The position numbers and the translations under genes were made by a program. The notes beneath the pieces are model-generated. The model was not told the origin of the DNA. It searched no databases and saw only the letters and a program-made list of their open reading frames with translations. Below are positions 9,105-47,528 of a stretch of DNA of 64,000 nt, one piece after another; the first letter of the stretch is position 1; every line of letters starts with the position of its first letter. Source of the DNA: an uncultured Victivallales bacterium (GTDB lineage Bacteria > Verrucomicrobiota > Kiritimatiellia > UBA8416); assembly GCA_964472315.1 (NCBI GenBank), contig CAYYJS010000013.1, forward strand, positions 229 through 64,228. Reading direction: 5' to 3'.

Positions 9105-9685
9105 GCGGTGGGCCGAAGGTCATCTTGCTCGACAGCAACGCCTATTTCCGCCTCGCTCAGTCCATTCGGCCTTTGCTCAAACCGCGGTATGGCCCACCGC
9201 CGTCGTATTCGCTTCTTGTCCTGAAGGAGCTCGATCAGGAATACCTTCGCAGTGCCCGCCTCCGAAGCAGATTCAACTGGTTCAGCGGCAGAGAATATGT
9301 CAGCGATCGCGAGAAGAACCGCTATACGGTGAGTGGTGCGGGCGCACGACTGGTCGATATCGCGTTCTCCTATCTGGCGAGGCAGGCCGATAGCGAGGGC
9401 CTGAATCTTGCTCGCGAGGACATCCAGGCGCTTGCTGTTGGCCACGCGCGTGGATTTCCTGTCGTCACGGATGACAGGGGCATGCAGAGGCTGGCCGGAA
9501 TATTCGGCATCGAGTGCTGGTCGACGTTGGCGCTCTTGAAGCACATGGTCGATCATGGGCGCATCGATTTCAACATCGTCCGCCAAGTAGTCGAGTATTG
9601 GCACGCAGAGCAGGACCTGCCTTGGCCTTTGAACGAACTTCGCCGGCGTTACAAGGAGTTCTTCTCGGAGGACTGTCCCATATAG
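9101..9685 (+). CDS. PIN-like domain protein (DUF4411-like), the usual partner of ImmA/IrrE-HTH proteins
   Basis: 194 aa. VILLDSNAYFRL at the N-terminus and PVVTDD resemble PIN acidic motifs. The ATGA overlap with the upstream peptidase gene suggests translational coupling. The ImmA-DUF4411 gene pairing is a known conserved neighbourhood. Confidence 0.5.
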   Translation: MSGGPKVILLDSNAYFRLAQSIRPLLKPRYGPPPSYSLLVLKELDQEYLRSARLRSRFNWFSGREYVSDREKNRYTVSGAGARLVDIAFSYLARQADSEGLNLAREDIQALAVGHARGFPVVTDDRGMQRLAGIFGIECWSTLALLKHMVDHGRIDFNIVRQVVEYWHAEQDLPWPLNELRRRYKEFFSEDCPI

Positions 9686-9720
9686 GCCCGCTCGATGCCG
9701 CTACACGGATACCTCACACC

Positions 9721-10524
9721 ATGAACGCACTTGAACGGGCATCGATTGCGAAAGCGGGGCGTGACCACGGGTGGGAGTGCGTGCTGCGCAACGGTGAGCA
9801 TGGCGTCATCCTGGGGTCATCCCGGCATGACGGCGAAGCCACGATCGAGGCGAGCACCCCGGCGGGAGCCTGGTCATGCCTGTTCAACAACGGCCTTGCC
9901 ATGGCGGAGCTGCGCCGTTCGTTCCCGGACGCCGCCCGCGCTGACGGCACATTCGTCCTCGGCGCCATGGGAGCGCTCACCGTCCTTCTCCGGCGTGCGG
10001 CGGAGTTGCACATGTCCCTGCCCAACGCGGCGGCCCGGCGATACGCGAAGTGCGTCAAAGAAGGGGAGCATGTCGAAGGAACGAACGATCTGGCATTCTC
10101 GCAGGTCGGCGATGTGGCCGAAGCCGTACGCCGAAAGACGCTGGTTTTCGACTGGCTGGTACAGAACGAAGACCGAATTCTTGGCGAGCGAGGTGGCAAC
10201 GTCAATGTCCTCTGGGTTGCCGGCGAGAACTCGGTGTTCGTGATCGATCACAATCTCGCATTCGACACGGCTTTCAATGTCGCTTCATGGAAGGCGCAGC
10301 ACGTGTTCCGCAATGATCTCGATGCATGGGATGCCGGGTTCGCCCTTGCATTGGAGCCGTTGCTGAAGGATACTCAGTTGCGGCTGGACGAGTACTGGGG
10401 AGAGTTGCCGGATGAATGGGTTGATGTGGCTTCGCTGCTCCCTGAGTTCTCGCTGGCAAGGCTGCACGCTGTGCTGGCACGATTTGCTGGAGCGAATAGC
10501 CTGTTTGGCATGGTGACAAAATGA
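9721..10524 (+). CDS. HipA-like (HipA_C / PI3K-PI4K-like) kinase-fold protein
   Basis: 267 aa. FDWLVQNEDRILGERGGNVNVLW parallels the HipA catalytic loop (VLIGNTDDHLKNF). VFVIDHNLAFD parallels the HipA activation/DFG-like motif. I see no N-terminal HipA domains. Confidence 0.4.
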   Translation: MNALERASIAKAGRDHGWECVLRNGEHGVILGSSRHDGEATIEASTPAGAWSCLFNNGLAMAELRRSFPDAARADGTFVLGAMGALTVLLRRAAELHMSLPNAAARRYAKCVKEGEHVEGTNDLAFSQVGDVAEAVRRKTLVFDWLVQNEDRILGERGGNVNVLWVAGENSVFVIDHNLAFDTAFNVASWKAQHVFRNDLDAWDAGFALALEPLLKDTQLRLDEYWGELPDEWVDVASLLPEFSLARLHAVLARFAGANSLFGMVTK

Positions 10525-11366
10525 AGAGCAACTACGCCTGCAATTTTGCGGTTGTGAGATTTCTGCCATACCCCGAGACGGATGAATTCGTCAATATCGG
10601 CATTGTCATGGCGTGCCCGCAAACGGGCATCTTCGACTTCAAGATCGACACTCGGCGTCGGGAGCGCATCACGGGATTCTTTCCTGAACTCGATGTTGAT
10701 ACACTCTTGGATGGTCGGAAGGCTTTCGTGCGCGAAGTGGCGCGTGTGAAGGCTGCATTCGACGGGCAAGCGACGCCGGATCAGCGAAGCTTCAACTTCA
10801 GCCAGCGGGAATGCGTCGATATATTCCGGAAACTGGTGAAGCCGCGTGAAAGCGTCTTTCGGTTCAGCGCCATCGGAACGGTGCTCACCATGGACCCGAA
10901 GCAGAAGCTGCAGGAGCTGTTCGCATACTACGTGGAGCGCCAATTCGCGCAGCGTGAGGAGTACCAGGAGACAGTCATGACTCGCCGGCTTGCGACTGTG
11001 TTCAAGGCGGAACACTTGATCGACCTGTACCACGAGCAGCGTTTCGGCGATGAACTATACCATGTGACGCTGCCGTTCGTTCACGAGGTGGACGACGCTG
11101 CGGTCAAGGCGATCAAACCCCTCGACCTCGACAAACATGATTCAACCCGGATCATTGAATATGGCGACAAATGGCAACGCCGTATCGAGCGCCTCCGTGG
11201 CATGGGGGACTTCCCCAAGCGGATTCTGTTTGTCGTGCGCCAGCCCGGAAGTGGCCGCAAGCGAGAGGCAGCGGAAAGCGTGCGTCGTGATCTTGAAGCC
11301 CTTCACGCCGAGACGCTCAACGAGCGCGATAAGGCTGAGGTGGTCGCATTCGCCCGGGCCGGATAG
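10521..11366 (+). CDS. DUF3037-like protein
   Basis: 281 aa. The N-terminus CNFAVVRFLPYPETDEFVNIGIVM matches my recollection of the DUF3037 consensus. Its ATGA overlaps the upstream kinase-like gene. Confidence 0.4.
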   Translation: MKSNYACNFAVVRFLPYPETDEFVNIGIVMACPQTGIFDFKIDTRRRERITGFFPELDVDTLLDGRKAFVREVARVKAAFDGQATPDQRSFNFSQRECVDIFRKLVKPRESVFRFSAIGTVLTMDPKQKLQELFAYYVERQFAQREEYQETVMTRRLATVFKAEHLIDLYHEQRFGDELYHVTLPFVHEVDDAAVKAIKPLDLDKHDSTRIIEYGDKWQRRIERLRGMGDFPKRILFVVRQPGSGRKREAAESVRRDLEALHAETLNERDKAEVVAFARAG

Positions 11367-11442: not shown

Positions 11443-11537
11443 AGGGAGCCAAGGGCCAGGCCATCTGAGCGCGATGGGCCGGGGTGCATGTCCCCTCCCC
11501 GTAGCCTCCGTCGCCAGGCGGTGGACTCCCCACATGG
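11443..11537. repeat. 95-bp direct repeat, copy A (pairs with 17592-17686; one mismatch)
   Basis: agggagccaagggccaggccatctgagcgcgatgggccggggtgcatgtcccctccccgtagcctccgtcgccag[g/a]cggtggactccccacatgg is present at both positions. The pair brackets the helicase module. Confidence 0.85.
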
Positions 11538-11581
11538 TGGACGGAAATGTGCGGGAAACCTTGCTGGTCGGCCTTCATTGA

Positions 11582-14500
11582 ATGAGTGATACAGCCACAG
11601 ATCCCATTTCAGACTGCGTCCGGCTGGATCTGGAGACCAACCAGTCTGGGGGGATTCTCAAAATCGGTGCCGTCCGTGGCAATCGGACTTTCCTGCGTAC
11701 GGGCCGCTTTGACCAGAAGGCTGCGCTGGCTGAGCTGGATGGTCTGTGTCGGGGAGCATCTTGCGTGGTCGGCCATAATGTTGTGCTTCATGACTTGGAA
11801 GTCCTCAGGGAGCACAGCGCTTCGCTTTCGCTTCTGAGGCTGCCGGTAATCGATACGCTGTTCCTGTCGCCGATCTGCTTCCCGGAGAACCCATATCATC
11901 ACCTGGTCAAGGACTACAAACTAGTCTCGGACTCTGTGAACGATCCCGTCGCGGACGCACGGCTTTCCGGCGTCTTGCTCGCGGATGAGGTGCAGTCGCT
12001 GCGCGGAAGGGCCGAAGCGGCTCCCGATGTGTTCCGTTGCCTGCAGTTTCTGCTGTGCGCAGAAGGCGGCACCGACAACCTTCTGTCTGTGGGTATGCAG
12101 TTGGTGTTTGGCGCAGCCGGTGGAGGCGACTCGGTCACGACACAGCAAGGGCGCCCGTTGCTCACGTCAGTCCTAGGGGATCTGGCCTGTCGAACCGGCG
12201 CGGCATACCTGGCGGAAACCGACTTTGGCTCCGCGCAATCGCGTTGGGCACTGGCGTATGTGCTGTCGTGGCTGCGCGTCGCCGGCGCCGATTCCGTACT
12301 GCCGCCCTGGGTACGTCTGCACAACCCGCTGGTGAGCCCGATCCTTTCGCGACTGCGCGATGTCCCGTGTGACAGTCCCGAGTGCACGTACTGCCGTGCG
12401 ACTCACGATCCCGAGGCCCAACTGTCACGTTTTTTCGGATTCGACAGCTTCCGCCCCACTCCGCCGGATGCAAACGGCCAGAGTCTTCAGCGCGGCATTG
12501 TCTTGGCGGGCATGCGAAATGAGTCCGTGCTGGCCATCATGCCCACCGGCGGAGGGAAATCACTCTGCTTCCAGCTTCCCGCCCTGGTGCGCAACTTACG
12601 CAGAGGGCAGCTCACCATCGTCGTGTCTCCCCTGCAGGCGCTCATGAAGGATCAGGTCGATGGCCTTGTGCGCCGGACCCACATGCACAACGCAGCGGCG
12701 CTTTACGGGTTGCTGACTTCACCCGAACGAGGGGAGGTCCTGCGCGGCGTGCGAACCGGGAGCATTGCGCTCCTTTACGTTTCGCCAGAACAACTGCGCG
12801 GGAAGTCGTTCAGGAATGCCGTGCTTCAGCGAGAGATCGGCTGCTGGGTTCTGGATGAGGCGCACTGTCTGTCCAAATGGGGACACGACTTTCGTCCTGA
12901 CTACCTGTACGTAGGCCGGTTCATCCGCGAATTGGCGAAAGAGCAGGCAGGCGCCCTGCCGGCAATCGCCTGCTTCACGGCAACTGCGAAGCGGGATGTC
13001 ATCGACGAAATCGTCGAGTTCTTCCGCCGCGAGACCGGCACGGAACTGATTCGCTATGAAGGCGGCGTCGAGCGCGACAACCTGCATTTCGAGGTACAGA
13101 CTGTGGGTGCGCATGCGAAGTTGCCGCGGATGCATGATCTTCTGAGTGCCCGACTGCGGCCCGGCGGCCCTGGAAGCGCAGTCGTATTCCGTGCTACGCG
13201 AAAGGCTGCGGAGGAAACGGCGGAATTCCTCGTTACTAAGGGCTGGTCCGCGGCATGTTTTCATGCCGGACTGCTGGCGACCGACAAGAAGCGCATCCAG
13301 AATGACTTCCTGGCTGGCGAAATCCAGGTCATCTGTGCGACCAACGCTTTCGGGATGGGTATCGACAAGGATGACGTCAGGCTCGTCATCCACGGCGACA
13401 CGCCGGGATCGCTGGAGAACTACCTGCAGGAAGCCGGACGGGCCGGGCGAGACCGGAATCCCGCCGACTGCGTGCTCCTATACGACGAAGAGGATTGCGA
13501 GCAACAATTTCGCATGGGTGCTCACTCCGAGCTGAGCCGCCGCGATATCGCCCAGATCCTTCGCGGTCTCCGCAAGGCCGCCCGGTCGCGGAAAACCGAT
13601 GAAGTCGTCATCACAACCGGTGAGTTGCTGCGCGATGAAGACGTCGATACTGAATTTGGTCCCCAAGACAATTCAGCGGACACCAAGGTGCGGGCCGCCG
13701 TCTCATGGCTGGAGCGTGCAGGATTTGTCGAACGGAACGAGAACCGGACCAACGTCGTGCAGGCCCGACTGCTCGTCAAGAGTATCGACGAGGCCCGGGC
13801 GCAGTTGGCGAGGCTCAACTTGTCCGAACGGGAGGGCGGCCTGTGGTTAGCGATCATACGCGAGATGATGAACGCCTCCGAGATGGATACGCTATCCGTC
13901 GACGAGATTGCCCTGTTGCCCGAGTTCCAGTCCTACTTGGAGGAAGCCCGTTCCGGTGCGCCGGAGCGGCTGGTACGGGAAGGGCGCAGCCAGGAGTATC
14001 TGAGCGCGAAGGTGCTGAAAGTCCTCGACGCGATGATGGGTGTGGGCGTGCTCAAGAAGGATACGCTGCTGACAGCGTACGTGCGGTATAAGGTCGCGGA
14101 TCATTCTGGGATCAGACTGGACCGCGTGCTCGGCGTGGATCGCGAGTTCCTCAAGCTGCTGTCCGAGGAAGAGCCAGATCCGGAGGGGTGGCTCTCGCTC
14201 AACCTCCGTCTCGTGAACGACGAACTGTTGTCGCGAGGGGTTGACTGCTCGCCGGAAATGCTGCGACAGCTCCTGCGGAGCCTGAGCGAGGATGGTCGAG
14301 GGTTCGCGGGCCAAACGGGCAGCATTGACTGCCGCTACGTGGGGCGTGACGCCTACCGCGTCAGGGTTCGAAGGGAATGGCGACAAGCTGAGGCGCTGGC
14401 CGAAGTGAGGAGGAGAGTGGCAACCAAGATCCTGGAAGCCCTCTTGGACACAGTCCCGCCGAATACACCGCCTAAGGGCGACCTCTTGGTTGAGTTCGCG

Positions 14501-16804
14501 TTCGAGACGCTCCGGTCGGCGTTGGAGAGTGACCTGACCCTTCGCTCCGATATTCGTGACATGCAGGCGGCCATCGAGCGCGGGTTGATGTTTCTACATG
14601 AGCAGAGCGTCATCATCCTTCAAAAGGGGCTGGCGATATTCCGCTCTGCCATGACCGTCCGCGTTCTGCCCGAAGGTGACCGCCAACGGTATACGGCAGA
14701 ACACTACGACGCGCTGCAGCACCACTACCGTGAGCGTGTGTTTCAGGTGCATGTGATGAACGAGTACGCCCGTTACGGACTGCAGAAGATCCGCGCAGCT
14801 CTCGAGTTGGTCGTCGCATACTTCACGATGGACAAGGAGTCGTTCATCCGACGGTTCTTCAGTGACAGCGGGGAACTGCTGGAGAGAGCCACGACGGCGC
14901 GGTCCTACCGCGCGATCGTAGACAGCCTGGGAAACCGCGATCAGATCCGCATTGTGACCCAGCCGACTCAGAAAAACATCCTGATCCTGGCCGGACCAGG
15001 CTCAGGGAAGACCCGAACCGTCGTGCACCGGTGTGCGTACCTGTTGCGCGTTAAGCGCGTACGTCCCCGGGCCGTCTTGGTCTGCTGCTTCAACCACAAG
15101 GCCGTCCTGGAGTTGCGCCGACGCCTGGCCGCTTTGGTTGGCAAGGACGCCATCGGGGTTACGATTCAGACCTACCACGGCCTGGCCCTTCGCATCCTCG
15201 GCCTGTCCTGCCGCGGACTGGAGGACAGGAACGGGACCACGCCCGATTTCGACCAGCTCATATCCGACGCTGTACGCGTCCTGCGTGGAGAGTCCGGAGT
15301 GCCGGGTGTCGAGCCGGACGACGTTCGTGACCGCCTGTTGGCCGGCTTTGAGCACATTCTCGTGGACGAGTACCAGGACATCGATGAGCCCCAGTACGAG
15401 ATGATCAGCGCCATAGCCGGCCGTACCCTCAAGGACGGGGAGCGCAAACTGTCCATTCTGGCTGTCGGCGACGACGACCAGAGCATCTACGGTTTTCGGG
15501 GCGCCAACGTGGAATTCATCCGTCGCTTCAAGACGGACTACGAGGCGGATGTTGCCTTCCTGATCGAGAACTACCGTTCCACGCGCCATATCATTGAGGC
15601 GGCCAACCGCTTGATCGGGCGCAATCATGACCGCATGAAGGTGGACAAGGAGATCCGAATCGACCAGGGACGTGGCTTACTCCCGCCGGGCGGGGTGTTC
15701 GGCCAGAAGGACGCCCTTACGCGCGGCCGCGTCACGCTCGTCGAGGTCGGGGACGCTTCGGTGCAGGCGTCAGCCGTCGTGCGCGAGATCAAGCGGCTGC
15801 GCGCCTTGGGCGCAACCCGCTGGGAGGACATCGCCGTCCTCTCGCGCACACGGCGAGACCTTGCCCTGGTGCGCGCCGCAGCGGAAGCCGATGGCATTCC
15901 CGTTTCGTGGCCGCTGGACCGCGGCAAGATACCTCCGCTGAGCCGCATCCGTGAGGTATGGAACGTCCTGTCCGAACTGGCCTCTATTCGCGGCGAATCC
16001 ACCACGGCTTCGGACCTGCTTGTTCGGTTTGGGCTTTCGGACGACTCACCGCCAGCAAATCCCTGGCGGGTGCTCATCCAGGACTGCCTGCATGCGTGGG
16101 CCGACGAGACACTGGACGAAAGACTTCCTGTCGCCACCGCTCTCGAGGGGCTTTACGAGGCGCTGGCCCAGCGACGGCGCGACGAACAGTTCGGCTGCGG
16201 CGTAGTCCTGAACACAGTCCATGCGGCCAAAGGCACGGAATACGAGCATGTCCTGCTCTGCGGCGATTGGTCGGGCGCGCGAGGGGCGGACATTGAGGAG
16301 GAACGCCGTGTTCTTTACGTCGGCATGACCCGTGCCCGCCACACCTTAGCTGTTTTCAACAGGATGGACCGCCGCAATCCCTTTGCCGACGAACTCACCG
16401 GGCCGTGTTTCACCTACCGCCGCGAGTCTGCCGGCCCAGCCGGACGCGACCACGATGCATCGGATTATGTCCTGCTCGGCATGGAAGATATCTTCCTGGA
16501 CTTCGCCGGCCAGCAGCCCGCCGGCCACCCCGTACACACTGCGCTGGCGGGGCTTCAGCCCGGCGACAAACTGGCAGTGTCCCGTAACGGCGCGCGGCCC
16601 GCGTTGCTGAACGCGGACGGGCAGATGCTTGCTCGGTTCTCTGCCAAGGCCGCTGATACGTGGAAGGATCGTCTCGACACGATTCGTGACGTTCAAGTCA
16701 TCTGCAACGTTATTCGACAGCGCACCGACTGCAAAGAGAGCGAATACCAAGACCGGCTCAAAGCGGACAGATGGGAGATCCCGATCTGCGAGATCCGGAT
16801 GTAG
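11582..16804 (+). CDS. Tri-domain protein: N-terminal DnaQ-like DEDDh 3'-5' exonuclease, RecQ-family helicase and UvrD/PcrA-family helicase
   Basis: 1740 aa.
- Exonuclease: RLDLETNQ…VVGHNVVLHDLEVL matches exonuclease motifs I and III.
- RecQ: MPTGGGKSLCFQLPAL and LDEAHCLSKWGHDFRPDY are RecQ signatures.
- UvrD: ILILAGPGSGKTRTVVHR (Walker A), VDEYQDIDEPQYEMI (motif II) and YVGMTRAR (motif VI).
The last ~150 aa are unassigned. Confidence 0.7.
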   Translation: MSDTATDPISDCVRLDLETNQSGGILKIGAVRGNRTFLRTGRFDQKAALAELDGLCRGASCVVGHNVVLHDLEVLREHSASLSLLRLPVIDTLFLSPICFPENPYHHLVKDYKLVSDSVNDPVADARLSGVLLADEVQSLRGRAEAAPDVFRCLQFLLCAEGGTDNLLSVGMQLVFGAAGGGDSVTTQQGRPLLTSVLGDLACRTGAAYLAETDFGSAQSRWALAYVLSWLRVAGADSVLPPWVRLHNPLVSPILSRLRDVPCDSPECTYCRATHDPEAQLSRFFGFDSFRPTPPDANGQSLQRGIVLAGMRNESVLAIMPTGGGKSLCFQLPALVRNLRRGQLTIVVSPLQALMKDQVDGLVRRTHMHNAAALYGLLTSPERGEVLRGVRTGSIALLYVSPEQLRGKSFRNAVLQREIGCWVLDEAHCLSKWGHDFRPDYLYVGRFIRELAKEQAGALPAIACFTATAKRDVIDEIVEFFRRETGTELIRYEGGVERDNLHFEVQTVGAHAKLPRMHDLLSARLRPGGPGSAVVFRATRKAAEETAEFLVTKGWSAACFHAGLLATDKKRIQNDFLAGEIQVICATNAFGMGIDKDDVRLVIHGDTPGSLENYLQEAGRAGRDRNPADCVLLYDEEDCEQQFRMGAHSELSRRDIAQILRGLRKAARSRKTDEVVITTGELLRDEDVDTEFGPQDNSADTKVRAAVSWLERAGFVERNENRTNVVQARLLVKSIDEARAQLARLNLSEREGGLWLAIIREMMNASEMDTLSVDEIALLPEFQSYLEEARSGAPERLVREGRSQEYLSAKVLKVLDAMMGVGVLKKDTLLTAYVRYKVADHSGIRLDRVLGVDREFLKLLSEEEPDPEGWLSLNLRLVNDELLSRGVDCSPEMLRQLLRSLSEDGRGFAGQTGSIDCRYVGRDAYRVRVRREWRQAEALAEVRRRVATKILEALLDTVPPNTPPKGDLLVEFAFETLRSALESDLTLRSDIRDMQAAIERGLMFLHEQSVIILQKGLAIFRSAMTVRVLPEGDRQRYTAEHYDALQHHYRERVFQVHVMNEYARYGLQKIRAALELVVAYFTMDKESFIRRFFSDSGELLERATTARSYRAIVDSLGNRDQIRIVTQPTQKNILILAGPGSGKTRTVVHRCAYLLRVKRVRPRAVLVCCFNHKAVLELRRRLAALVGKDAIGVTIQTYHGLALRILGLSCRGLEDRNGTTPDFDQLISDAVRVLRGESGVPGVEPDDVRDRLLAGFEHILVDEYQDIDEPQYEMISAIAGRTLKDGERKLSILAVGDDDQSIYGFRGANVEFIRRFKTDYEADVAFLIENYRSTRHIIEAANRLIGRNHDRMKVDKEIRIDQGRGLLPPGGVFGQKDALTRGRVTLVEVGDASVQASAVVREIKRLRALGATRWEDIAVLSRTRRDLALVRAAAEADGIPVSWPLDRGKIPPLSRIREVWNVLSELASIRGESTTASDLLVRFGLSDDSPPANPWRVLIQDCLHAWADETLDERLPVATALEGLYEALAQRRRDEQFGCGVVLNTVHAAKGTEYEHVLLCGDWSGARGADIEEERRVLYVGMTRARHTLAVFNRMDRRNPFADELTGPCFTYRRESAGPAGRDHDASDYVLLGMEDIFLDFAGQQPAGHPVHTALAGLQPGDKLAVSRNGARPALLNADGQMLARFSAKAADTWKDRLDTIRDVQVICNVIRQRTDCKESEYQDRLKADRWEIPICEIRM

Positions 16805-16859
16805 CATCCTTGTTCGGCCAGGAATCGAAAGCTCCACATGAAGAACACACGAAGCGAAA

Positions 16860-17258
16860 ATGCAACCAGCGCGTAGAGATGAGATACGGCGTTTTCTCGT
16901 CACGGGCGAGCATGATGCGGCGCATAGGGTTTGGCCCGGACGCCACGTTTTTGAGCGGGTCCATGCGGGGGATGCTGCGCTGCGGGCCGCCCTGGCCGAC
17001 GCCGTGCGCCAGCGGACAAAGGGGCTGACATTTCCTTCCCTGCCACCCGACTTCGATGCCGGCCAGTTTGTGCTCGGCAAGGTCCGTCCCATGGTATGCG
17101 GGCTCTTTCCGGCAAGGGAGCGACAGGTCATGCTCGACCTGTTCGAAAAAGCCCTGGTGTTCGTGTCCGGGGACAACATCGAGCAACTCGTTTCAGAGAC
17201 GGAAATGCTGTCCACAGCCCGCCAGATGAGGGAGCATACCCGATGGGAGTGCGAGTGA
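16860..17258 (+). CDS. Hypothetical protein downstream of the helicase
   Basis: 132-aa ORF, 56 nt after the helicase stop, same strand. No recognised domain. Confidence 0.35.
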   Translation: MQPARRDEIRRFLVTGEHDAAHRVWPGRHVFERVHAGDAALRAALADAVRQRTKGLTFPSLPPDFDAGQFVLGKVRPMVCGLFPARERQVMLDLFEKALVFVSGDNIEQLVSETEMLSTARQMREHTRWECE

Positions 17259-17572
17259 CGATGGATCGGGCAAACAGTGAAATGAGCGCCAACCTGCTCG
17301 ATAACGTGAGCGCCCTGGTCGACCAGATGCAGGGCTTGGCGCGTCAGGCTCACGCCGAATACAGCCCCGAGGTGGATGCGCTGATTGCCACGCGCACCCG
17401 CGACACCCGACGGATCGAACGCCTGCTCGATGGCATCCTCGATTTCGGCTTCGATGACGCCATGACCCAGCTCTTCAAACGCCTCTGCCGCTACTACTAC
17501 ACCCTCGATCCCACCGCCACCGTCGATTACGTCCACACCTACCGCGAGATGTGGGACAGCGACGGATCATAG
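17243..17572 (+). CDS. Hypothetical protein (second small ORF of the helicase module)
   Basis: About 109-aa ORF (MGVRVTMDRANSEMSANLL…). It overlaps the previous ORF's end by 16 nt; an alternative start is MDRAN at 17261. It ends 20 nt before 95-bp repeat copy B. Confidence 0.3.
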   Translation: MGVRVTMDRANSEMSANLLDNVSALVDQMQGLARQAHAEYSPEVDALIATRTRDTRRIERLLDGILDFGFDDAMTQLFKRLCRYYYTLDPTATVDYVHTYREMWDSDGS

Positions 17573-17591
17573 GTTCCGCCGTCCACAACAT

Positions 17592-17686
17592 AGGGAGCCA
17601 AGGGCCAGGCCATCTGAGCGCGATGGGCCGGGGTGCATGTCCCCTCCCCGTAGCCTCCGTCGCCAGACGGTGGACTCCCCACATGG
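17592..17686. repeat. 95-bp direct repeat, copy B
   Basis: See copy A at 11443-11537. Confidence 0.85.
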
Positions 17687-17925
17687 CCTGTCCCTTGACG
17701 GCCTTATTCGACAAACCGATTTTGACCATCACTGACTTTGTCGAACGCACGGGTATTCAGCGGCGCAGCGCTGAACAGATCATGGAGGCCCTCCTGAACA
17801 GGAGGATTCTCGGAATCCAGGAGAGAGAAGCCGGCAGCAGGCCGGCCGTTCTGGCTTTCAGACGCTTGGTAGCCATTACGCAGCGCAAGGAGTTTTCAGC
17901 CAAGTGACAGAGCCCGGCGTTGGTG

Positions 17926-22315: not shown

Positions 22316-22651
22316 TCAGATCGGGCGGTTCGCGGCGTCGAGCACGATGACGCAGGGTTTGTGCGTCGCGACTTCCTCGGGCGACAGGAGGACGAACGAG
22401 AAGACGATCAGACGGTCGCCGACGGCGCCCTTGTGGGCCGTGGCGCCGTTGAGGCAGATCGTGCCGGACCCCGGCGCGTCCGGAATGGCATAGGTCTCGA
22501 AGCGTTCGCCGTTGGCCATGTTCGCGACCAGAATCTTCTCATACGGCAGGATGCCGACTTTGTCCATGAGCGCCCGGTCGATCGTCAGACTGCCTTCATA
22601 CTCCAACGCGCATTCGGTGACGCGCGCATGATGGAGCTTCGCCTTCAACAT
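22316..22651 (-). CDS. panD: Aspartate 1-decarboxylase
   Basis: MLKAKLHHARVTECALEYEGSLTIDRALMDKVGILPYEKILVANMANGERFETYAI…GSGTICLNGA matches PanD closely. About 111 aa, starting at the internal Met of the longer ORF. Confidence 0.85.
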   Translation of the reverse strand: MLKAKLHHARVTECALEYEGSLTIDRALMDKVGILPYEKILVANMANGERFETYAIPDAPGSGTICLNGATAHKGAVGDRLIVFSFVLLSPEEVATHKPCVIVLDAANRPI

Positions 22652-47454: not shown

Positions 47455-47528
47455 TGGTTGCCCGACTAGGACTCGAACCTAGACTCTAGCCTCCAAAGGG
47501 CCGTGTGCTGCCATTACACCATCGGGCA
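47455..47528 (-). tRNA. tRNA-Gln (anticodon TTG), CCA encoded
   Basis: Minus-strand sequence TGCCCGA-TG-GTGTAATGGCAGCACA-CGGCC-CTTTGGA-GGCTA-GAGT-CTAGG-TTCGAGT-CCTAG-TCGGGCA-A-CCA. Acceptor stem 7 bp, T-arm with TTCGAGT loop, anticodon loop CU-UUG-GA. It sits between ispE and prs, a conserved position for tRNA-Gln. Confidence 0.7.

Follow-up and report, generated by a model that had tools for sequence, protein, structure and literature searches.

A solitary gene fusing a DnaQ-like exonuclease fold with RecQ-family and UvrD-like helicase cores, found in a Victivallales defence island and in many other bacterial phyla

A gene in a defence island of an uncultured Victivallales bacterium joins two helicases from different superfamilies to a DnaQ-like fold, and raises the question of whether such a protein acts against invading DNA or on the DNA of its own host. 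The window referred to here is the whole 64,000-nt stretch of DNA that was analysed. The gene starts with ATG and encodes a product of 1740 amino acids, in which six parts lie in one chain (Table 1). Coordinates and length are exactly those of the first-pass annotation, and its reading of the product as exonuclease, RecQ and UvrD in a single protein was borne out by Pfam, NCBIfam and the predicted structure. Conservation was counted in 186 full-length homologs from many phyla; all helicase catalytic residues checked are invariant among them, and all three catalytic modules are under purifying selection.

Table 1. Features of the fusion gene and its flanks (positions in the window; residues in brackets).
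Feature	Position	Strand	Basis or remark
Whole gene, 1740-aa exonuclease-RecQ-winged-helix-UvrD fusion	11582..16804	+	ORF call and domain searches
DnaQ-like DEDD 3'-5' exonuclease fold (1-145)	11582..12016	+	predicted structure, conserved acids
Helical module with C203, C263, C268, C271 (146-275)	12017..12406	+	predicted structure, Cys conservation
RecQ-family SF2 helicase core (276-650)	12407..13531	+	Pfam, TIGR00614, invariant motifs
Family-specific linker, tandem winged-helix domains and long helices (655-1115)	13544..14926	+	
UvrD/PcrA/Rep-type SF1A helicase core (1116-1595)	14927..16366	+	Pfam, NCBIfam, invariant residues
Conserved C-terminal domain, 145 aa (1596-1740)	16367..16801	+	family alignment
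Left 95-nt direct repeat	11443..11537	.	specific to this locus
Right 95-nt direct repeat, one mismatch	17592..17686	.	
Two overlapping small ORFs, 132 aa (16860-17258) and 109 aa (17243-17572)	16860..17572	+	

Both motors are recognised readily. Pfam places DEAD (303-473) and Helicase_C (526-624) on the RecQ part, and AAA_19/UvrD-helicase (1124-1320; UvrD-helicase 154.7 bits), UvrD_C (1539-1591) and UvrD_C_2 on the UvrD part, so that DEAD, Helicase_C, UvrD-helicase and UvrD_C, all named in the first-pass annotation, are matched; RNase_T went undetected, and RQC and HRDC have no Pfam match anywhere in the protein. The RecQ core carries a Walker A motif (PTGGGKS), DEAH, an aromatic-rich loop (SKWGHDFRPDY) and motif VI (QEAGRAGRD), the last three being invariant across the family, as are K326, D425, E426, H428, R620 and R623 (186/186). 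Its score against the NCBIfam model recQ_fam (TIGR00614), 275.5 bits, exceeds the cutoff of 219.8 and places it in the RecQ family. The zinc-binding and HRDC domains of canonical RecQ proteins are missing from it. Against the housekeeping equivalogs it falls far short, with 324.2 bits for TIGR01389 (cutoff 640.2; only profile positions 5-346 of 591 are covered) and 248 for PRK11057 (cutoff 1015). Because these scores lie so far under the cutoffs and the genomic position varies across 79 loci, the protein is not a housekeeping RecQ, as had been proposed. Upstream of the core, residues 146-275 are predicted to be entirely helical (pLDDT mostly >85), and each of their four cysteines is kept in 185-186 of the 186 members; a C-x4-C-x2-C knuckle among them points to a putative zinc site.

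The UvrD core displays GPGSGKT, DEYQD, VGDDDQSIYGFRGA and YVGMTRAR, and its K1143, D1262, E1263, Q1265 and R1584 are invariant (186/186). The best NCBIfam matches are PcrA (198.6 bits against a cutoff of 911), UvrD (180-192 against 965-1144) and Rep (155 against 951), all far under their equivalog cutoffs; helicase IV (128 against 543), HelD (52 against 419), RecB (81 against 696) and AddA (71 against 708-861) score lower still. By its Pfam matches this part is classed as an SF1A UvrD-like core, an ortholog of none of the equivalogs tested. The linker between the two motors, about 460 aa long, was considered as a hidden enzyme or sensor and rejected as such, since its structural matches are to winged-helix domains only, with no catalytic fold. 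The C-terminal domain contains invariant W1694, W1731, P1734 and E1737 and has neither a Pfam match nor a PDB profile match. No toxin-like or sensor-like domain was found in the fusion protein by Pfam.

The N-terminal domain is less conventional. Members of the DnaQ-like DEDD superfamily combine an RNase H-like fold with four acidic metal ligands (DxE in Exo I, D in Exo II, D in Exo III), and both are present here: D71 and D125 are invariant in the 186 homologs, and D16 and E18 are found in each of the 179 whose sequences extend over these positions. The DEDDh subfamily is defined further by a catalytic histidine five residues ahead of the last aspartate (H-x4-D). This position, five residues before D125, is N120, and among the 186 homologs the column holds N in 166, S in 11, P in 5, K in 1 and G in 1, and never His. 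The earlier label of DEDDh therefore stands for the fold and the four acids and is inexact for the subfamily, as the histidine is absent across the whole family. The loop F100-L114, which directly precedes the last active-site helix, is invariant; it includes H106 and K110, both invariant, and Y105, which is nearly so, and the general base could come from these residues. The domain escaped every sequence search, with no match to RNase_T or other exonuclease models in Pfam at E<=10, none by phmmer and profile searches against the PDB, and an hhalign comparison with E. coli DnaQ that aligned only the Exo I motif (probability 5%); structure prediction was therefore needed. Structural matches are stronger to epsilon-like enzymes than to RNase D/Rrp6, and also include the pseudo-exonuclease DnaQ folds of Exuperantia and Maelstrom. 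Exonuclease activity is accordingly putative, because the canonical general-base histidine is missing in every member.

The immediate flanks had suggested a larger unit. Two trailing small ORFs and bracketing 95-nt direct repeats, both noted in the first-pass annotation, are indeed present in the window, and the repeats agree at 94 of 95 positions, where none would be expected by chance. The proposal that gene, small ORFs and repeats form a module did not hold, as neither the small ORFs nor the repeats occur at other loci: at none of the 52 other loci having both flanks is the gene bracketed by direct repeats of more than 20 nt, and the small ORFs are absent beside all other family members. 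Further copies of the repeat were found neither in the window nor in metagenome contigs, and a functional or RNA element was rejected (no Rfam match; fold z of -0.5 and -0.3). The small ORFs have gene-like GC at codon positions and are also called as genes on a Logan contig, and they have no Pfam or PHROG match; they are probably real genes unlinked to the family, and were rejected as partners of the fusion protein because they are not conserved. That contig (L001, 6134 nt, window 11488-17621) was considered as an excised circle and rejected; its ends most likely reflect an assembly break, since they fit the points near the repeat mismatch where 31-mers lose uniqueness (k=31 assumed). Repeats and small ORFs are features of the putative insertion site here and not of the system.

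The family is a large and strictly conserved one, and undescribed as far as the searches show. A search of 1.84 billion representatives (E<=1e-30) gave 289 or more clusters at 50% identity; more than 120 clusters of full-length homologs at >=55% identity and 80 genome loci were found. Members with 44-75% identity occur in Verrucomicrobiota, Kiritimatiellia, Victivallales, Planctomycetota, Omnitrophota, Desulfobacterota, Gamma- and Betaproteobacteria, Bacteroidota and Binatia; on 20 plasmids or chromids the gene is present in full length, at about 40% identity. Culturable hosts of homologs include Methylotuvimicrobium buryatense 5G, Allochromatium vinosum DSM 180 (pALVIN01) and Cereibacter sphaeroides. 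With no full-length copy among 50,697 phage records, an origin from phages was rejected. Within the PVC group the fusion protein shows 55-83% identity, compared with 61-85% for DnaB, a similarity that would be consistent with inheritance that is vertical in part and with a role in the cell. Split forms that might tie the family to a named two-gene system were also looked for: most shorter hits inspected look like fragments or pseudogenes, because their ends fall inside conserved motifs or regions (e.g., MGIDKPDVR), and two proteins of about 1060-1090 aa (P0132 and P0248) could be genuine linker-UvrD proteins.

At the locus itself, the description of a defence island was well founded. GC content is 0.58-0.63 over the first 22 kb of the window and 0.64-0.69 beyond, and this low-GC island belongs to a PVC-group chromosome on which DnaB and BamA are encoded as well. 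Genes for an AAA_13 ATPase, GmrSD, DUF429, HTH-M78 and HipA_2 with DUF3037 lie upstream of the fusion gene, and AbiEii/AbiEi downstream. Elsewhere the setting is mixed. Neighbour clustering took in the ORFs of 83 loci and the window, with the helicase present in 79; among these 79 no conserved neighbour was found, no neighbour family recurring in more than five, and the fusion gene is a solitary gene. The survey of relatives bore out a distribution over many phyla and revealed no conserved neighbour. Of 15 annotated neighbourhoods, 6 have recognised defence systems at a distance of up to about 10 kb: the window itself, McrBC, SIR2-HerA, BREX (BrxL) with a ScoMcrA-like HNH, type I-D CRISPR-Cas, and type I R-M with HNH. 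The other nine contain toxin-antitoxin (TA) modules, IS elements or just ordinary genes of metabolism, and a census of two genes on each side in about 60 genomes returned housekeeping genes for the most part. Integrase and HTH_17 excisionase genes lie near the fusion gene at two loci (L002 and L091), and IS elements adjoin it at several. Large non-mobilizable replicons make up most of the plasmids listed, and in the six examined the gene is never beside replication or transfer genes.

The architecture had been put forward as unnamed, and neither a description of it or of the family in the literature nor a dedicated PADLOC model among the best 25 of 79 matching models was found. Those 25 cover either the RecQ part only (DpdF, 358 bits; PsyrT, 268 bits; and alternative-Cas3, with the candidate model C3a193) or the UvrD part only (GajB, 179 bits; RTasHel). 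GajB, PsyrT and DpdF need obligatory partners (GajA, PsyrA and the dpd cluster, respectively), whereas no partner is conserved in the family. In Gabija the UvrD-like GajB is encoded beside GajA, a nuclease of the OLD family; here the match to the GajB model is confined to residues ~1126-1441, and no OLD/GajA-like neighbour is present in the window; PsyrT covers only 312-667, and no adjacent gene is conserved; DpdF (NF041063) reaches 190.7 bits where 550 would be needed, and dpd-like neighbours are lacking. Hachiman is a pair of HamA and HamB, Nhi a single nuclease-SF1 chain, and DdmDE a pair of DdmD and DdmE. Models for these systems, which had been cited as analogues, are not among the best 25 of the 79 PADLOC matches, and the fusion gene has no conserved partner gene; the resemblance is one of logic only. 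Nhi, Hna, DdmD and Cas3 likewise couple motor and nuclease in one large chain, occur in defence islands and can work without modification-based discrimination. Apart from the candidate model C3a193, none of them is among the best 25 PADLOC matches. Each has one motor and another nuclease fold, and the tandem of SF2 and SF1 motors with a DEDD exonuclease is unrepresented among them.

Other likenesses come from DNA repair. Human WRN shares the N-terminal 3'-5' exonuclease fold and the RecQ SF2 core followed by a winged helix in one polypeptide, but a WRN-type protein combines a DEDDy (RNase D-like) exonuclease with RecQ core, RQC and HRDC, whereas the fusion protein has D121 and no tyrosine at the Y-x3-D position, no Pfam match to HRDC or RQC, and an extra UvrD motor. 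DinG of Gram-positive bacteria (S. aureus, B. subtilis) also pairs a DEDD exonuclease with an SF2 helicase, but its motor is XPD-like and not RecQ, and it has no SF1 motor; its exonuclease is not known to lack the catalytic histidine. For mode of action, the closest match by analogy may be RecBCD, AddAB and AdnAB, in which two motors and a nuclease act from DNA ends in both repair and the destruction of foreign linear DNA. These are multi-subunit enzymes with SF1 motors throughout and RecB-type PD-(D/E)xK nucleases, and the RecBCD motors have opposite polarity, whereas the fusion protein combines SF2 and SF1A motors, both of 3'->5' families, with a DnaQ-fold nuclease in one chain.

Which role these features serve was weighed among several readings. 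The one preferred here, with a confidence just short of even, is that of a self-contained, horizontally mobile accessory enzyme, a dual-motor helicase and exonuclease that most likely acts against invading DNA; an immune role is plausible because the family consists of solitary accessory genes that are often, not always, found among anti-phage genes. The serious rival is an accessory genome-maintenance enzyme, an analogue of WRN or Gram-positive DinG acting on host DNA, which we consider rather unlikely. Its substrates would be stalled or reversed forks, R-loops or crosslink intermediates, with the exonuclease trimming 3' ends while the RecQ and UvrD activities unwind nascent strands or strip proteins. 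RecQ, UvrD, Rep and DinG work at replication-transcription conflicts and stalled forks, and pairings of a helicase with a DnaQ-like exonuclease also serve repair in WRN, Gram-positive DinG and MrfAB. The many loci among ordinary metabolic or housekeeping genes, the DnaB-like conservation in the PVC group, and the lack of a toxin-like or sensor-like domain and of a partner gene all fit such an enzyme. A rare and patchy distribution (the 289 clusters fall in more than eight phyla), an unconserved chromosomal position, copies on plasmids and integrase-bearing islands, and the placement of the window copy in a low-GC island dense with restriction, Abi and TA genes all argue against it.

An exonuclease-like domain that is dead, or repurposed for DNA-end binding, would leave a dual translocase/helicase, e.g., a protein-stripping or a remodelling motor, in whichever biological role. 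This reading follows from the loss of the DEDDh histidine, replaced by N, S or P in nearly all members, and it gains from the blindness of the Pfam exonuclease models and from the pseudo-exonuclease folds among the structural matches; it is nonetheless judged improbable, as four metal-binding acids invariant across phyla are unexpected for a dead site and H106, K110 and Y105 could, by inference from their conservation, take over the general base. Least probable, and by our estimate very unlikely, is a role in the service of mobile elements such as plasmids and integrative islands, in their replication, recombination, stability or competition with other elements or host defences, with no protection of the host. 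Such service is suggested by the plasmid and chromid copies, the integrase and excisionase genes, the IS elements, and nearby TA modules of the kind usual in the accessory regions of plasmids, but it fits poorly with plasmids that are mostly non-mobilizable (none of six with adjoining replication or transfer genes), with many chromosomal copies that bear no mobile-element hallmarks, with the absence of full-length copies from the phage records, and with the lack of conserved linkage to replication or transfer genes.

If the protein does act against invading DNA, the winged-helix tandem would be a DNA-binding scaffold joining the parts, and the protein would load where a 3' single-stranded end is exposed, or on replication intermediates that are forked or gapped. 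RecQ and UvrD/PcrA/Rep families translocate 3'->5'. Both motors would run in this direction, unwinding or stripping the duplex, and the exonuclease would degrade the released 3'-ended strand, so that invading phage or plasmid DNA would be destroyed or its replication arrested with no need of a partner protein. How the motors might cooperate is conjecture, because two motors that share a polarity cannot follow both strands of one duplex in the same direction. No element for self/non-self discrimination was identified; discrimination may operate through DNA ends or aberrant replication structures, as in RecBCD, and not through sequence or modification. A bolder proposition, advanced tentatively, is that the protein founds a class of single-protein immune effectors not recognised before, in which motors of two superfamilies (SF2 RecQ and SF1A UvrD) are combined with a variant DEDD exonuclease whose general base has shifted from the H-x4-D position to H106 in the loop. 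Horizontal transfer would have carried it into more than eight bacterial phyla and onto plasmids, and it would recognise and shred phage or plasmid replication intermediates or free 3' ends with neither a partner nor a modification system.

As a defence protein, it would represent a compact system encoded by one gene, with helicases of two superfamilies in series and a proofreading-type nuclease, spanning many phyla, mostly environmental lineages that have been little studied. As a repair enzyme, it would be a bacterial counterpart of WRN-like exonuclease-helicases with a UvrD motor added. Either way, the family provides a naturally occurring DEDD active site without the canonical histidine, and it poses the mechanistic question of how a single chain coordinates two 3'-5' motors with a 3'-5' exonuclease.

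ORF calling recovers one uninterrupted 1740-aa reading frame at 11582-16804 of the forward strand, as the first-pass annotation had placed it. In Pfam, its first motor is a DEAD/Helicase_C pair (residues 303-624) and its second a UvrD-helicase/AAA_19/UvrD_C set (residues 1124-1591). NCBIfam assigns the first motor to the RecQ family (TIGR00614, 275.5 bits; cutoff 219.8) but not to housekeeping RecQ, for which TIGR01389 gave a core-only match of 324 bits against a cutoff of 640; the second motor is closest to PcrA, UvrD and Rep and misses every equivalog cutoff by far. On these scores, both motors are paralogs of the housekeeping enzymes rather than their orthologs. In each motor, the Walker A lysine, the DE(A/Y) acids and the arginine fingers are invariant in all 186 full-length members. 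The C-terminal 145 residues are conserved, with four invariant residues in the family alignment, and matched neither a Pfam domain nor a PDB entry. The RecQ-type and UvrD-type helicases proposed earlier were both correctly recognized, and the three-enzyme architecture stands.

The exonuclease domain gave no Pfam match at E ≤ 10, and searches against the PDB with a single sequence or a 26-member profile produced hints at E ~ 1 only. Structure-based methods did recognize it: AlphaFold2, given family homologs, modelled residues 1-275 with confidence (pLDDT 88.7, pTM 0.87), and Foldseek returned DnaQ-fold kinds of proteins, with weaker scores (best E 2.7e-3). In DEDDh enzymes, a general-base His sits five residues before the last Asp. 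Among the 186 members, D16, E18, D71 and D125 are invariant, and the position five residues before D125, N120, is Asn in 166, Ser in 11, Pro in 5, Lys in 1 and Gly in 1, and never His; the label "DEDDh" is therefore right for the four acids but not for the canonical His. Loop F100-L114, just before this position, is where conservation within the domain peaks, and it was modelled at low confidence; within it H106 and K110 are invariant and Y105 is kept in 183/186, and we infer that H106 could substitute for the missing His. A domain that is inactive or repurposed, whatever the biological role, is unlikely. Residues 146-275 are helical in the model, and C203, C263, C268 and C271, each kept in 185 or all 186 members, suggest a putative zinc site.

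By family the protein is a RecQ and by nuclease fold it falls in the DEDD superfamily; its second motor is UvrD-like. It fell outside housekeeping RecQ, UvrD/PcrA/Rep, DEDDh, WRN, GajB/Gabija, PsyrTA and DpdF; the closest in working mode include the dual-motor helicase-nucleases RecBCD, AddAB and AdnAB, and likewise the exonuclease-helicase fusions WRN and Gram-positive DinG. The earlier reading was right in part, and the protein belongs among helicase-nuclease fusions. A full-text literature search, thin for subscription journals so that absence is not proof, returned no description of an exonuclease-RecQ-UvrD fusion.

A word-indexed search found over 120 full-length protein clusters (at least 55% identity, mostly about 1720-1800 aa), whose most specific name was "RecQ family ATP-dependent DNA helicase." With a profile of the family-specific linker, an exhaustive HMMER search retrieved 289 cluster representatives (clustering at 50%) at E ≤ 1e-30, rising to 710 at E ≤ 1e-10. 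Proteins of 1600-2000 aa formed the largest length class; of the shorter matches inspected, most are cut off within a conserved motif or region and appear fragmentary. The best 80 loci (contigs, one genome per species) are nearly all full length, at 44-75% identity, and come from Verrucomicrobiota, Kiritimatiellia, Victivallales, Planctomycetota, Omnitrophota, Desulfobacterota, Gamma- and Betaproteobacteria, Bacteroidota and Binatia. The window itself comes from an uncultured bacterium of the PVC group; the named relatives of its DnaB are from Verrucomicrobia, Kiritimatiellae and Lentisphaerae (61-85% identity).

When ORFs called in 83 homolog loci and the window were clustered, the helicase formed a single cluster of 79, the biggest neighbor cluster had 5 members from 4 loci, and no gene recurred upstream or downstream; the helicase gene therefore travels alone. 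The earlier claim of a module comprising gene, small ORFs and repeats did not survive. The 132-aa and 109-aa ORFs look like real genes and were seen only in the window and on the identical Logan contig L001; among 52 other family loci, none is flanked by repeats exceeding 20 nt. Neither small ORF has a Pfam or PHROG match; they may be an independent toxin-antitoxin-like cassette hitch-hiking between the repeats. The repeats bracket a 6.1-kb segment holding the helicase and both ORFs, with unrelated flanks, and have no Rfam match, no folding signal and no further copy in metagenome contigs. A site-specific insertion or a local duplication could have left this pair; neither an empty site nor a further repeat copy turned up in the other loci or in metagenome contigs. 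By calculation, L001 covers window positions 11488-17621; on an assumed k of 31 these ends match a de Bruijn-graph break at the repeat, and they do not count as evidence for an excised circle. In its C-terminal half, the sequence of the 118-aa ORF at the right repeat resembles a winged-helix or Fic-associated DNA-binding segment; the ORF has no Pfam or PHROG match.

Features of the window and of homolog loci
Feature	Coordinates	Strand	Remarks
HipA_2 kinase-like ORF; DUF3037 gene	9514-10524; 10521-11366	+	directly upstream of helicase
95-nt direct repeats	11443-11537; 17592-17686		real, edges sharp
Small ORFs (132 aa; 109 aa)	16860-17258; 17243-17572	+	16-nt overlap, gene-like GC at codon positions
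118-aa ORF	17551-17907	+	starts just upstream of right repeat, runs through it
Three genes ahead of family member	L002:4412-9971	+	integrase-bearing island, 2.7-Mb contig
"3'-5' exonuclease" genes (plasmid loci)	L084:15688-16269; L085:22638-23127	-; +	separate from family member
1739-aa ORF	L093:4545-9764	+	directly upstream of family member, JGI contig, no Pfam match

The local defense context noted earlier is real. GC is 0.58-0.63 over window 1-22000 and 0.64-0.69 in the remainder, and this low-GC island carries an AAA_13 ATPase, GmrSD, DUF429, an HTH-M78 protein, HipA_2+DUF3037 and AbiEii/AbiEi. Its left edge lies beyond the window start and its right edge near 22 kb, ahead of MgtE at 22650; within 1-22000 neither an integrase nor a tRNA gene was found, and the sole tRNA gene detected in the window is tRNA-Gln (47455-47528). 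The HipA_2 and DUF3037 genes, with a 4-nt overlap by coordinates, look like a two-gene module.

Eight homolog loci, selected solely on length of surrounding sequence, were annotated. Three have recognized defense systems within 10 kb (McrBC; SIR2-HerA; BrxL with a ScoMcrA-like HNH), one (L002) lies in an integrase island, and four have purely metabolic, transport or IS/TA neighbors. Among six annotated plasmid loci, two adjoin defense systems (type I-D CRISPR-Cas; type I R-M with an HNH endonuclease) and the others TA modules or IS elements. Overall, with the window counted, 6/15 annotated neighborhoods hold recognized defense systems, which looks above the rate for ordinary genes and below levels for nominating defense families. 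In a census of about 60 genomes, the two genes flanking the helicase on each side belong predominantly to unrelated housekeeping families; a few defense matches occur (JetA, type III methyltransferase, SoFic, MADS). The same-strand trio in L002 encodes an 810-aa Tubulin_2 protein and two others (687 and 359 aa) that lack a Pfam match, the last gene stopping 29 nt before the helicase start, and was not seen at other loci. In L093, SIR2_2 and DUF87/HerA genes precede the very large, uncharacterized 1739-aa protein and a NERD gene lies downstream past the family member, a defense-like island. An annotated "3'-5' exonuclease" occurs within 10 kb at 2/6 plasmid loci (Thiothrix J1836_RS00295, about 190 aa; Allochromatium ALVIN_RS15810), which could reflect chance or a recurring link.

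The protein combines three intact catalytic modules with a DNA-binding scaffold, without a partner gene. In the parent families, RecQ and UvrD/PcrA/Rep helicases are established to move 3'→5' along single-stranded DNA, and nucleases of the DnaQ fold to trim 3' ends nucleotide by nucleotide. The fusion would engage 3'-tailed, gapped or forked DNA, one or both motors would unwind it, and the exonuclease would degrade the 3'-ended strand. Two motors that share one polarity cannot advance side by side on both strands of one duplex; conjecturally, they could cooperate in series on one strand or on two fork arms, or one could serve as an anchor or protein-stripper.

A genome-maintenance role resembling that of WRN or DinG is the main rival to a defensive one, and is rather doubtful. 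Full-length copies at about 40% identity lie on 20 plasmids or chromids (in Thiothrix, Allochromatium, Cereibacter, Rhizobium, Paracoccus, Microvirga, Sulfitobacter and Croceicoccus), and none was found in phage records. A mobile-element function, the lesser rival, is improbable. Destruction or replication arrest of invading DNA is the reading we tentatively favor, at somewhat under even chances, and a defense role is plausible for the fusion protein as a candidate only.
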